This document shows positions 14,201 through 20,636 of a stretch of 64,000 nucleotides of DNA, piece by piece. Numbering within the stretch: position 1 is the first letter of the stretch; every line of letters starts with the position of its first letter. The translations under genes and the position numbers were made by a program. A model generated the notes under the pieces. The model worked only from the letters and a program-made list of their open reading frames with translations, ran no database searches and was not told where the DNA came from. The DNA is taken from assembly GCF_044647545.1 (NCBI RefSeq), contig NZ_CP172818.1. The stretch is one strand, 5' to 3'. The stretch comes from Escherichia coli (GTDB lineage Bacteria; Pseudomonadota; Gammaproteobacteria; Enterobacterales; Enterobacteriaceae).

Positions 14201-17200
14201 ATGGCTACGAAGAAGAGAAGTGGAGAAGAAATAAATGACCGACAAATATTATGCGGGATGGGAATTAAACTACGCCGCTTAACTGCGGGTATCTGTCTGA
14301 TAACTCAACTTGCGTTCCCTATGGCTGCGGCAGCACAAGGTGTGGTAAACGCCGCAACCCAACAACCAGTTCCTGCACAAATTGCCATTGCAAATGCCAA
14401 TACGGTGCCCTACACCCTTGGAGCGTTGGAATCGGCCCAAAGCGTTGCCGAACGTTTCGGTATTTCGGTGGCTGAGTTACGCAAACTCAACCAGTTTCGT
14501 ACGTTTGTTCGTAATGTCCGCCCGGGTGATGAACTGGATGTCCAGGCACAAGTTAGTGAAAAAAATTTAACCCCGCCGCCGGGTAACAGCAGTGGCAACC
14601 TTGAGCAACAGATAGCCAGTACTTCACAGCTAATTGGATCTCTGCTCGCCGAAGATATGAACAGCGAGCAAGCGGCAAACATAGCACGTGGATGGGCCTC
14701 TTCTCAGGCTTCAGGGGTAATGACAGACTGGTTAAGCCGCTTCGGTACCGCAAGAATCACGCTGGGCGTGGATGAAGATTTCAGCCTGAAGAACTCCCAG
14801 TTCGATTTTCTCCATCCGTGGTATGAAACGCCTGATAATCTCTTTTTCAGTCAGCATACTCTCCATCGTACTGACGAGCGTACGCAGATTAACAACGGCT
14901 TAGGTTGGCGTCATTTCACTCCCACATGGATGTCGGGCATCAACTTCTTTTTCGACCACGATCTTAGCCGTTACCACTCCCGCGCCGGCATTGGCGCGGA
15001 GTACTGGCGCGACTATCTAAAATTAAGCAGTAACGGCTATTTGCGACTGACCAACTGGCGCAGCGCACCTGAACTGGACAACGATTATGAAGCACGCCCG
15101 GCCAATGGCTGGGATGTACGCGCAGAAAGCTGGCTACCCGCCTGGCCGCACCTTGGCGGTAAACTGGTCTATGAACAGTATTATGGCGATGAAGTGGCCC
15201 TGTTCGATAAAGACGATCGGCAAAGTAATCCTCATGCCATAACCGCTGGACTTAACTATACCCCCTTCCCGCTGATGACCTTCAGCGCGGAGCAACGCCA
15301 GGGTAAACAGGGCGAAAATGACACCCGTTTTGCCGTCGATTTTACCTGGCAACCTGGCAGCGCAATGCAGAAACAGCTTGACCCGAATGAAGTCGCTGCA
15401 CGGCGTAGCCTTGCAGGCAGCCGTTATGATCTGGTGGATCGCAACAACAATATCGTTCTGGAATATCGCAAAAAAGAACTGGTTCGCCTGACCCTGACAG
15501 ACCCCGTGACAGGGAAGTCAGGAGAAGTGAAATCACTGGTTTCGTCGCTACAAACCAAATATGCCCTGAAAGGCTATAACGTCGAAGCCACCGCACTGGA
15601 AGCTGCCGGTGGCAAAGTGGTCACAACGGGTAAAGATATTCTGGTTACCCTGCCGGCTTACCGGTTCACCAGTACGCCAGAAACCGATAACACCTGGCCG
15701 ATTGAAGTCACCGCCGAAGATGTCAAAGGCAATTTGTCGAATCGTGAACAGAGCATGGTGGTCGTTCAGGCACCTACGCTAAGCCAGAAAGATTCCTCGG
15801 TATCGTTAAGTACCCAAACATTGAACGCGGATTCCCATTCAACCGCCACACTGACTTTTATTGCGCATGATGCAGCAGGTAATCCTGTTGTCGGGCTGGT
15901 GCTCTCGACGCGTCACGAAGGTGTTCAGGACATCACCCTTTCTGACTGGAAAGATAATGGTGACGGAAGCTATACCCAGATCCTGACCACAGGAGCGATG
16001 TCTGGCACGCTGACGCTGATGCCACAGCTGAATGGTGTGGATGCGGCTAAAGCCCCCGCCGTGGTGAATATCATTTCTGTTTCGTCATCCCGAACTCACT
16101 CGTCAATTAAGATTGATAAGGACCGTTATCTCTCCGGCAATCCTATCGAGGTGACGGTAGAACTGAGAGATGAAAATGACAAACCTGTTAAGGAACAAAA
16201 ACAGCAACTGAATAACGCAGTCAGCATCGACAACGTGAAACCAGGAGTCACTACAGACTGGAAAGAAACCGCAGATGGCGTCTATAAGGCGACCTATACC
16301 GCCTATACCAAAGGCAGTGGACTTACTGCGAAGCTATTAATGCAAAACTGGAATGAAGATTTGCATACCGCTGGATTTATCATCGACGCCAACCCGCAGT
16401 CAGCGAAAATTGCGACATTATCTGCCAGCAATAATGGTGTGCTCGCCAATGAGAATGCAGCAAACACCGTCTCGGTCAATGTCGCTGATGAAGGAAGCAA
16501 CCCAATCAATGATCATACCGTCACGTTTGCGGTATTAAGCGGATCGGCAACTTCCTTCAACAATCAAAACACCGCAAAAACGGATGTTAATGGTCTGGCG
16601 ACTTTTGATCTGAAAAGTAGTAAGCAGGAAGACAACACGGTTGAAGTCACCCTTGAAAATGGCGTGAAACAAACGTTAATCGTCAGTTTTGTCGGCGACT
16701 CGAGTACTGCGCAGGTTGATCTGCAGAAGTCGAAAAATGAAGTGGTTGCTGACGGCAATGACAGCGTCACAATGACCGCGACCGTCCGGGATGCAAAAGG
16801 CAACCTGCTCAATGACGTCATGGTCACTTTCAATGTTAATTCAGCAGAGGCGAAACTGAGCCAAACCGAAGTGAATAGCCACGACGGGATCGCCACAGCT
16901 ACGCTGACCAGTTTGAAAAATGGTGATTATAGGGTTACGGCCTCTGTGAGCTCTGGTTCCCAGGCTAATCAACAGGTGAATTTTATCGGTGATCAAAGTA
17001 CTGCTGCCCTGACCCTCAGTGTGCCTTCAGGTGATATCACCGTCACCAACACAGCTCCGCAATATATGACTGCAACCTTGCAGGATAAAAATGGCAACCC
17101 ACTAAAAGATAAAGAAATCACCTTCTCTGTGCCAAACGACGTCGCAAGTAAGTTCTCGATTAGCAACGGAGGAAAAGGCATGACGGATAGTAACGGGGTT

Positions 17201-20200: not shown

Positions 20201-20636
20201 CTATATGAAAATTAGCGCAATTGATTACAGTCAAAATATCAACGGTGATTACAAAGCTACTGTTACAGGAGACGGAGAGGGTATCGCAACGCTGATCCCC
20301 GTATTGAATGGTGTTCATCAGGCGGGCCTGAGTACCACGATAGAATTCATTAGCGCGGAAACCAGACCAATGACCGGTACAGTGTCAGTGAATGGTGCAA
20401 ACCTACCGACAGCTTCATTCCCTTCGCAGGGATTTACCGGGGCGTATTATCAGTTGAATAATGACAACTTTGCACCAGGAAAAACGGCGGCTGATTATTC
20501 GTTTTCAAGCTCGGCCTCCTGGGTAGGCGTTGATGCTACTGGTAAAGTGACATTCAAAAATGACGGTGATAGCAATACTGTAATAATCACAGCGTCCCCA
20601 AGATCCGGTGGGCTACCAAACCCCCCCCCCTCCTGA
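14201..20636 (+). pseudogene. yeeJ: Inverse-autotransporter (intimin/invasin-family) adhesin with LysM and Big repeats; reading frame broken twice
   Basis: Three consecutive ORFs (14126..18661, 18697..18969, 19059..20636) in frames 2,1,0 encoding one continuous Big-domain protein; start MATKKRSGEEIN at 14201. Confidence 0.75.
20621..20630. repeat. C10 homopolymer at 3' end of yeeJ reading frame
   Basis: Ten consecutive C immediately before the stop of the last yeeJ ORF. Confidence 0.9.

Follow-up and report, generated by a model that had tools for sequence, protein, structure and literature searches.

In the window (the whole 64-kb stretch of DNA analyzed), the locus order is tRNA-Asn – yeeJ – GT9 – shiA, identical to that in K-12 MG1655, with yeeJ lying between tRNA-Asn/mtfA and the GT9 gene/shiA. 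The tRNA-Asn gene (GTT; 13812..13887, plus strand) is the insertion site of the yersiniabactin island (HPI) in the nearest natural relatives; the downstream neighbor of yeeJ is a convergent glycosyltransferase family 9 gene (20780..21895, minus strand), whose ORF is intact here. As the sequence-only reading had described, yeeJ is written as three consecutive plus-strand ORFs in coordinate-mod-3 frames 2, 1, and 0. ORF1 (14126/14201..18661; start codon at 14201, 1,486 codons as written) ends with TAG at 18659–18661, nine codons past the first frameshift (FS1); ORF2 (18697..18969) is the middle frame piece between FS1 and the second frameshift (FS2), with the homologous reading at 18634–18951; ORF3 (19059..20636) encodes distal Big_1, Invasin_D3, and Invasin_D4 domains, is open in the homologous frame from 18957, and has an aberrant tail, GGLPNPPPS followed by the stop. 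Homology to K-12 YeeJ extends to all three (residues 1–1480 in one frame and 1693–2245 in another), which agrees with the original assignment of the locus. No single frame leads from the signal peptide to the lectin domain; there are three, with stops at 18661 and 18969.

The modules of ORF1 are a signal peptide, a weak LysM, the IAT beta-barrel (Pfam PF11924, IAT_beta, aa 142–416, E = 1.2e-111), and about eight complete Big_1 domains with part of a ninth; most IAT_beta codons fall in a K-12-identical block. LysM gives weak Pfam matches (E = 0.12 in the window, 0.068 in K-12 YeeJ) and contains a 3-codon deletion; as to damage of LysM by this deletion, the Pfam matches, equally weak in both proteins, do not discriminate. 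The NCBIfam scan yields no YeeJ-specific model at the cut-off and supports a generic inverse-autotransporter N-terminus alone. When one A is added at each frameshift site in silico, the repaired protein has a tandem passenger of 13 Big_1 or Invasin_D3 domains plus Invasin_D4. The Intimin_C C-type lectin domain is absent here: homology stops at K-12 residue 2245, and the lectin domain of K-12 YeeJ, itself a weak Pfam match (E = 0.0056), is at aa about 2264–2338.

K-12 YeeJ (2,358 aa) is an inverse autotransporter of type Ve (Martinez-Gil et al. 2017, PMC5595812). Its N-terminal modules are alike here, and positions 14783–18536 are base-for-base identical; unlike it, the window has two frameshifts, one Big repeat fewer, and no C-type lectin domain, native stop, or terminator. 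Alignment to the intact gene shows both one-base gaps (GCACC at 18629–18633 and GGAAC at 18952–18956, 4–13 nt off the positions first noted), and also several further losses: 9 bp in frame at 14512; a 312-bp Big repeat exactly at the FS2 site, so that the total gap there is 313 bp, not 1 bp; 3 bp at 19465; and ~433 bp at 20612–20629, a deletion that takes the C-type lectin domain along with both the native stop and the terminator hairpin. The 3' 2.1 kb and the 5' fragment 14508–14782 represent a non-K-12 allele, about 6–7% diverged. Addition of the two A residues does produce one uninterrupted ORF of 2,145 codons (14201..20636), as claimed earlier, but not the expected protein: neither the Big repeat nor the lectin domain comes back, and the ORF still has no native stop or terminator, hence the two-A repair does not give an intact YeeJ.

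The two frameshifts and the 3' junction

FS1 (18629..18633, plus strand) has GCACC in place of GCAACA in intact alleles, a –1 change at codon 1477, inside Big_1. The exact 61-mer around it is found in 1,883 of the 5,426 complete E. coli genomes, Nissle 1917 and O26 among them, therefore FS1 is genuine and widespread, and a read error in a homopolymer does not account for it. Programmed frameshifting and phase variation were also considered and rejected: a slippery or repeat tract is lacking, the two sites being short (AA in GCA[A]CC, and AA[A]), and the FS1 allele is fixed, identical in all 1,883 genomes.

FS2 has a different standing. It coincides with the junction left by the 312-bp Big-repeat deletion (18952..18964, plus strand), whose crossover is inside the 11-bp direct repeat AACGGCAACCC. 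The junction with GGAAC is present in none of the 5,426 complete E. coli genomes, the same junction with GGAAAC is present in 2,040, and the missing A is private to the window; metagenome scans show no matches to the FS2 junction and two contigs with the GGAAAC control, a denominator too small to tell. FS2 fits an imprecise deletion call (313 for 312 bp) rather than a homopolymer error or a mutation. Of the two single-A deletions proposed initially, the first stands and the second probably does not. The 3' deletion junction (20611..20630, plus strand) is garbled as well, with a run of ten C at 20621–20630, where natural relatives have TGCTATTTACCAAACAGTTCC; the 3' deletion architecture itself is common to 2,072 genomes.

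The other option offered initially, that the organism has an intact yeeJ and that both missing A's are homopolymer sequencing errors, could draw on the privacy of FS2 and on precedent. In PMC5595812, frameshifted or truncated yeeJ alleles are reported for 15 of 96 genomes, and its discussion cites upaH in CFT073, an adhesin frameshift arising from misassembly; these cases and the window are alike in that a large repetitive adhesin gene is frameshifted in the deposit and assembly error is considered. However, FS1 recurs in 1,883 independent complete genomes, the sites are AA/AAA with no long runs, the other genes of the window have no homopolymer frameshifts, and the repaired ORF lacks what is listed above. 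We consider this option scarcely credible.

A natural yeeJ remnant in other genomes

In nature, the gene lacks both its start codon and its 3.7-kb interior in almost all FS1 carriers. This remnant allele has a 3,693-bp internal deletion, with HPI in place of the first 275 bp of the gene; the internal-deletion junction is seen in 2,057 genomes. The carriers are Nissle 1917, O26 RM10386, FDAARGOS_497, and about 2,000 other complete genomes, and PGAP labels the remnant "Ig-like domain-containing protein, frameshifted; incomplete". The window shares with the remnant FS1, the loss of the 312-bp repeat, and the 3' lectin-domain deletion; at the 312-bp junction the two are 1 nt apart, the window being one A short. 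Unlike the remnant, the window has K-12 sequence both at the 3,693-bp deletion and at the HPI-abutting site, and its 3' junction is garbled into poly-C.

Full-length yeeJ with FS1 is found in VE-V11-M (NZ_AP027978.1, "complete" in RefSeq), with clean junctions and three interior SNPs; from this genome, a natural full-length FS1 allele may exist. BHUCD01 (NZ_CM183442.1), with FS1 and with the repeat and lectin domain kept, was considered as a natural intermediate and rejected. It resembles K-12 precisely at the borders of the deletions and, at 4,641,498 bp, is near the K-12 genomes of the collection (4,639,694–4,641,689 bp); it is probably reference-guided too. RefSeq has at least one "complete" genome, BHUCD01, in which the yeeJ locus repeats the pattern of the window.

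K-12-identical blocks in the window

The per-kilobase mismatch map gives, for window positions 1–13888, two differing positions against FDAARGOS_497 and 377 against K-12. The identity with FDAARGOS_497 ends at 13888, just past tRNA-Asn, and is followed by a plus-strand block of 587 bp (13889..14475) with no mismatches to K-12, which spans the yeeJ start codon at 14201 and the region upstream of the gene; this block is missing from the FDAARGOS_497 lineage, with HPI in its place. The next 323 bp (14476..14798, plus strand) are the strain's own allele, 100% identical to FDAARGOS_497 and different from K-12 at 18 positions (16 substitutions and the 9-bp in-frame indel at 14512). The yeeJ interior (14799..18491, plus strand; 3,693 bp, most of ORF1) again has no mismatches to K-12, and corresponds exactly to what the natural remnant allele has deleted: the ends of the K-12-identical run, 14783–18536, agree with those of the deletion to 16 and 45 bp. 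The interior is 100% identical in K-12 derivatives only; other strains show 95.5–99.9%. The 3' remnant (18492..20636, plus strand) is the strain's own allele, ~7% diverged from K-12, and matches FDAARGOS_497 throughout save 18953–55 and 20611–28. Altogether, 4.3 kb of the 6.4-kb yeeJ span (13889–14475 and 14799–18491) is 100% K-12, between segments of another lineage. From this arrangement of the sequence, we interpret the two stretches as probable K-12 reference fill.

Relative to K-12, the 3' remnant has dS of 0.14–0.17 and dN/dS of about 0.25–0.27, with no in-frame stops, which indicates that this allele was functional for most of its history. The contrast of a conserved ORF1 with an old divergent 3' allele, also drawn from dN/dS, was dropped in its ORF1 part, the K-12 identity upstream being taken as fill.

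The pattern extends beyond yeeJ. A block of 5,078 bp (38527..43604; agn43, yeeR) likewise has no mismatches to K-12 and is lacking in the FDAARGOS_497 lineage, so that there are three such zero-mismatch blocks where the nearest natural relatives are without the sequence, 9,358 bp in total; their flanks differ from K-12 at roughly 10–130 positions per kb. The relatives have HPI and an island of ~50 kb; the window has neither. Over 18492–36243, four private differences from FDAARGOS_497 are seen, and every private indel is on a K-12-relative breakpoint: a garbled stretch at 12227–51 (yodB-deletion junction), indels at 18953–55 (312-bp deletion junction) and 20611–28 (433-bp deletion junction), and an indel at 34656 (IS5-free site, 9 bp too many removed). 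Apart from these, only isolated base substitutions, e.g., at 32795, are seen as private differences in unique sequence. Finally, the exact-protein look-up of ORF1 (start at 14174) retrieves one NCBI contig only, of 4,499,902 bp; this record is shorter than K-12 and far below the 5.1–5.3 Mb of the relatives, which we count in favor of a reference-guided assembly.

Interpretation of the locus

We therefore favor, with a probability of about 0.85, the reading of the window as a K-12-scaffolded assembly of reads from a lineage near FDAARGOS_497, MS6198, and ECONIH1. In such an assembly, the consensus would be the strain's own wherever the lineage shares sequence with K-12; K-12 bases would be retained where the lineage has nothing to map; the lineage's own insertions would be dropped; and deletions relative to K-12 would be called imprecisely. 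The real yeeJ fragments of the strain would then be 14476–14798 and 18492–20636, bearing FS1 and lacking the 312-bp repeat and the lectin domain; the 4.3 kb of K-12 sequence would bridge these fragments to yield the apparent 1,486-codon ORF1, while FS2 (a 313-bp call instead of 312) and the poly-C tract would be junction artefacts. The artefact explanation would also resolve the two dissimilarities to the remnant, the lack of the internal deletion and of the HPI abutment. In contrast to the cases of PMC5595812, the artefact here would be the reference fill of a real deletion combined with an inherited frameshift, not a collapsed repeat. Several observations stand against it: K-12-only yodB, IS5, and yoeB-yefM are removed, yet the 3.7-kb yeeJ interior and agn43-yeeR are kept; a run of ten C is an odd output for a consensus caller; and VE-V11-M has full-length yeeJ with FS1.

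If the sequence is instead correct, a remnant-type allele has either gained a K-12-like tract by recombination or always kept it, leaving a full-length FS1 pseudogene in which the private 1-bp deletion and the complex 3' mutation represent continuing decay. The similar full-length architecture of VE-V11-M agrees with this, as do the confinement of the private indels to dead or intergenic DNA and the state of the window's other K-12 genes, of which ~47 of 51 are full-length and in frame, free of general indel noise. However, the crossovers would have to fall no more than 16 and 45 bp from the ends of the deletion, and the coincidence would have to recur at two more blocks; each block has no K-12 mismatches in 0.6–5 kb, against a difference of 1–7% in the flanks. 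Also required are the absence of HPI and the 50-kb island from an otherwise identical lineage and the chance placement of every private indel on a K-12-relative breakpoint. We regard this origin as unlikely, and as very unlikely the further case where an accurate sequence, with the 3.7-kb deletion repaired by a K-12-like donor tract, would result in a surface-displayed 1,486-aa YeeJ with no lectin tip.

Production and export of the 1,486-aa ORF1 product as a shorter adhesin (signal peptide, beta-barrel, and proximal Big domains, with no lectin tip) is, more generally, extremely doubtful. ORF1 is open and contains all N-terminal export modules, and the YeeJ signal peptide and translocation unit alone are able to display foreign passengers (PMC9328734); against this, ORF1 is mostly K-12 fill on the preferred reading, the natural FS1 carriers have, as noted, almost all lost the start codon and the interior, and yeeJ is barely expressed in laboratory conditions, K-12 included (PMC5595812).

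The practical consequence of the K-12-scaffolded reading is a quality warning: the 64-kb window mixes one lineage with K-12 fill, omits HPI and other islands, and presumably represents the same mixture across the whole 4.5-Mb source record. Findings that rest on 13889–14475, 14799–18491, 38527–43604 (agn43, yeeR), or the yeeS-cbtA region should be distrusted, as should small indels at structural junctions in the window.

For yeeJ, the view of the gene as a pseudogene holds to the extent that no intact YeeJ is possible; since ORF1 is largely K-12 fill, the real chromosome most likely does not have a gene that is whole but for two lesions. Most of the near-intact yeeJ with its two missing A's is probably an artefact of assembly, and the strain's own DNA matches the common, already annotated yeeJ wreck. 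The biological weight of this is little, as PGAP already flags the remnant as a pseudogene in thousands of genomes and yeeJ is intact in only about 35–40% of E. coli (PMC5595812, PMC6714894). The real chromosome, we infer, most likely carries an ordinary non-functional yeeJ remnant beside the yersiniabactin island, as do ~2,057 genomes.

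Reading frames and losses of yeeJ

The yeeJ adhesin gene is written in the window as three ORFs on the same strand, at 14126/14201..18661, 18697..18969, and 19059..20636, in coordinate-mod-3 frames 2, 1, and 0, respectively. Homology to K-12 YeeJ (2,358 aa) is seen by tblastn against the window, residues 1–1480 matching 14201–18631 and residues 1693–2245 matching 18954–20612 in a different frame, in agreement with the sequence-only reading of one adhesin spread over three frames. Both lesions named there, GCACC (18629–18633, here FS1) and GGAAC (18952–18956, here FS2), are in the sequence, the noted positions being 4–13 nt off; and one A added in silico at each yields the claimed continuous ORF (14201..20636, 2,145 codons).

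Alignment to the intact yeeJ of K-12 strain J53 bears out the 1-bp loss at FS1 but not a gene with two lesions only, as there are four further losses or gaps: an in-frame 9-bp loss at 14512; a gap of 313 bp, not 1 bp, at 18954; a 3-bp loss at 19465; and a loss of ~433 bp at 20612–20629. The 313-bp gap comprises a 312-bp Big-repeat deletion and one further base; the 312-bp deletion arose through a crossover inside the 11-bp direct repeat AACGGCAACCC, which codes for the NGNP motif of neighbouring Big_1 domains. The 3' loss deprives the gene of its final ~113 codons and stop codon, and of the terminator hairpin. In Pfam, the repaired protein retains IAT_beta (aa 142–416, E = 1e-111), 13 Big_1 or Invasin_D3 domains, and Invasin_D4; it has no match to Intimin_C, found near the C-terminus of K-12 YeeJ, and ends aberrantly in ...GGLPNPPPS. 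Given the 312-bp and 3' losses, the missing Intimin_C, and the aberrant end, the two restored A's would not yield an intact YeeJ. The observation is partly confirmed, and its interpretation partly supported.

Intact yeeJ is reported in 38/96 (PMC5595812) and 44/126 (PMC6714894) genomes; in 15 more it is frame-shifted and truncated, and the authors warn that assembly error is possible behind such calls, citing upaH in CFT073 (PMC5595812).

Frameshifts and junctions across E. coli genomes

Among 5,426 complete E. coli genomes, the exact 61-mer over FS1 occurs in 1,883 records (e.g., Nissle 1917, ATCC 11775, O26, O103), hence FS1 is inherited and not a read error. Of the two options initially offered, a pseudogene or homopolymer errors, the latter therefore fails for FS1. 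Intact alleles have GCAACAGTC at this site; the exact restoration proposed, GCAACCGTC, is found in one genome only. The 61-mer over FS2 has no exact match in the 5,426 genomes, and the same junction with GGAAAC instead is present in 2,040. The 3' deletion architecture is seen in 2,072 genomes, where the natural junction is GGTGGTGCTATTTACCAAACAGTTCC[TCC/GCA]TGAATCG; that of the window is GGTGGGCTACCAAACCCCCCCCCCTCCTGAATCG, with a C10 run at 20621–30, and its best match in any of the 5,426 genomes is 91.8%.

In Nissle 1917, O26, and FDAARGOS_497, the latter representing the lineage nearest to the window, the annotation at the yeeJ locus is a short pseudogene immediately beside fyuA of the yersiniabactin island (HPI). 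The FDAARGOS_497 remnant corresponds to window positions 14476–14798 and 18492 onwards, with a 3,693-bp internal deletion, and all sequence left of 14476 is replaced by HPI. The deletion junction is found in 2,057 genomes, essentially all carriers of FS1 and of the 312-bp and 3' deletions. The strain's 3' fragment, compared with K-12, has dS of 0.14–0.17, dN/dS of ~0.25, and no in-frame stops; the allele is old and, until FS1 and the deletions arose, had been functional over most of its past. The decayed remnant is biology already known and annotated.

K-12 identity along the window

Window 1–13800 shows 100.0% identity to FDAARGOS_497, MS6198, ECONIH1, and others of that lineage (genomes of 5.1–5.3 Mb), and 18492–36243 (17.8 kb) is identical to FDAARGOS_497 but for four places: 18953–55 (a missing A), 20611–28 (a cluster), 32795 (one SNP), and 34656 (a gap of 9 bp). 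Along yeeJ, mismatches to K-12 number 0 at 14001–14507, 16 at 14508–14782, 0 at 14783–18536, and about 150 at 18537–20800. Mapped per kilobase over the whole window, bins with FDAARGOS_497-lineage sequence have 0 mismatches/kb to it in nearly all cases, and roughly 10–130/kb to K-12. Stretches without a counterpart in that lineage equal K-12 exactly, forming three blocks with 0 mismatches: 13889–14475 (587 bp), 14799–18491 (3,693 bp), and 38527–43604 (5,078 bp, agn43–yeeR). The yeeJ interior varies in the species, with 100% identity only in K-12 derivatives and 95.5–99.9% in other strains. Neither HPI nor a ~50-kb island, both carried by the relatives, is present in the window.

All private indels of the window coincide with points where its structure departs from that of K-12: ~24 garbled bases replace the relatives' 65 bp at the yodB-deletion junction (12227–12251); the 312-bp deletion is called with a length of 313 bp; a poly-C tract stands at the junction of the 433-bp deletion; and at 34656, free of the IS5 present in K-12, nine bp too many are gone (GACTATGCA). 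K-12 yodB (12104–12284) and yoeB–yefM (56519–56730) have no counterpart in the window, the absence of yodB being common to the natural relatives. Some K-12-only segments are removed and others kept, a caveat to the assembly reading below. The exact ORF1 protein is found in NCBI in one contig only, of 4,499,902 bp, a length below that of the K-12 genome and far below those of the relatives' genomes.

Elsewhere, the porin ORF at 4177–5322 is intact (381 aa), highly diverged from K-12, where its counterpart is a frameshifted pseudogene, and annotated as porin in FDAARGOS_497. Downstream of yeeJ, a glycosyltransferase family 9 gene (20780–21895, minus strand) is open in the window and natural relatives, and has an internal stop in K-12/J53. 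A duplication of 7 bp, CTGACGC (29319–29325), shifts the frame of the regulator gene cbl (minus strand) near codon 30; it is genuine, since 29 genomes have the same duplication and cbl is annotated 'frameshifted' in FDAARGOS_497. The yeeS-yeeT-cbeA-cbtA-yeeW module (43605–46000) has ~5% mismatch to both K-12 and FDAARGOS_497, cbtA being frameshifted in both the window and FDAARGOS_497; this multi-copy yeeS–cbtA region at 44–46 kb has the appearance of several paralogous toxin–antitoxin copies collapsed into one consensus. An intergenic A13 run (45480–45492) lies in a CP4-44-like region, where K-12 has AAA.

Origin of the pattern

Assembly guided by K-12, as consensus or scaffold, would keep reference bases where reads do not map, lose the lineage's own insertions, and give imprecise deletion calls; judging from the sequence comparisons, the window pattern is the product expected. 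Natural recombination cannot easily be its source: it would need crossovers ≤16 and ≤45 bp from the end points of the yeeJ deletion, further ones at the edges of the two other K-12-identical blocks, and perfect identity to K-12, a laboratory strain, inside the blocks next to 1–7% divergence immediately outside. As K-12-guided assembly fits and recombination hardly does, we infer, with a probability of roughly 0.85, that most of the ORF1 in the window is fill from K-12, that FS1 is genuine in the strain's own 3' fragment, that FS2 and the poly-C run are junction artefacts, and that the real chromosome would carry an ordinary HPI-associated yeeJ remnant. The nearly whole yeeJ with two single-A deletions would then not be real.

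The YeeJ translocation unit by itself can export passengers (PMC9328734), so that display of a truncated YeeJ is possible in principle, only if ORF1 is real; the evidence argues against ORF1 as a real gene. In K-12, yeeJ deletion leaves adhesion unchanged, and yeeJ is barely expressed under laboratory conditions (PMC5595812).

Two other RefSeq chromosome-level records have a K-12-like yeeJ interior flanked by remnant-type sequence. In VE-V11-M (NZ_AP027978.1, 4.60 Mb), yeeJ is full-length and carries FS1, its junctions are clean, and three SNPs lie in the interior; the 3' flank matches that of genomes bearing the remnant at 100% identity, one of them a sister isolate of the same study, and this yeeJ may be natural or likewise reference-assisted. 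BHUCD01 (NZ_CM183442.1, 4,641,498 bp) is K-12-like around the deletion edges and very probably a reference-guided assembly. This pattern suggests that the 'complete genome' collection includes reference-guided assemblies.

The useful outcome is a warning that the window contains reference fill; the agn43–yeeR block is probably such fill as well, and findings on Ag43 in the window are not to be trusted.
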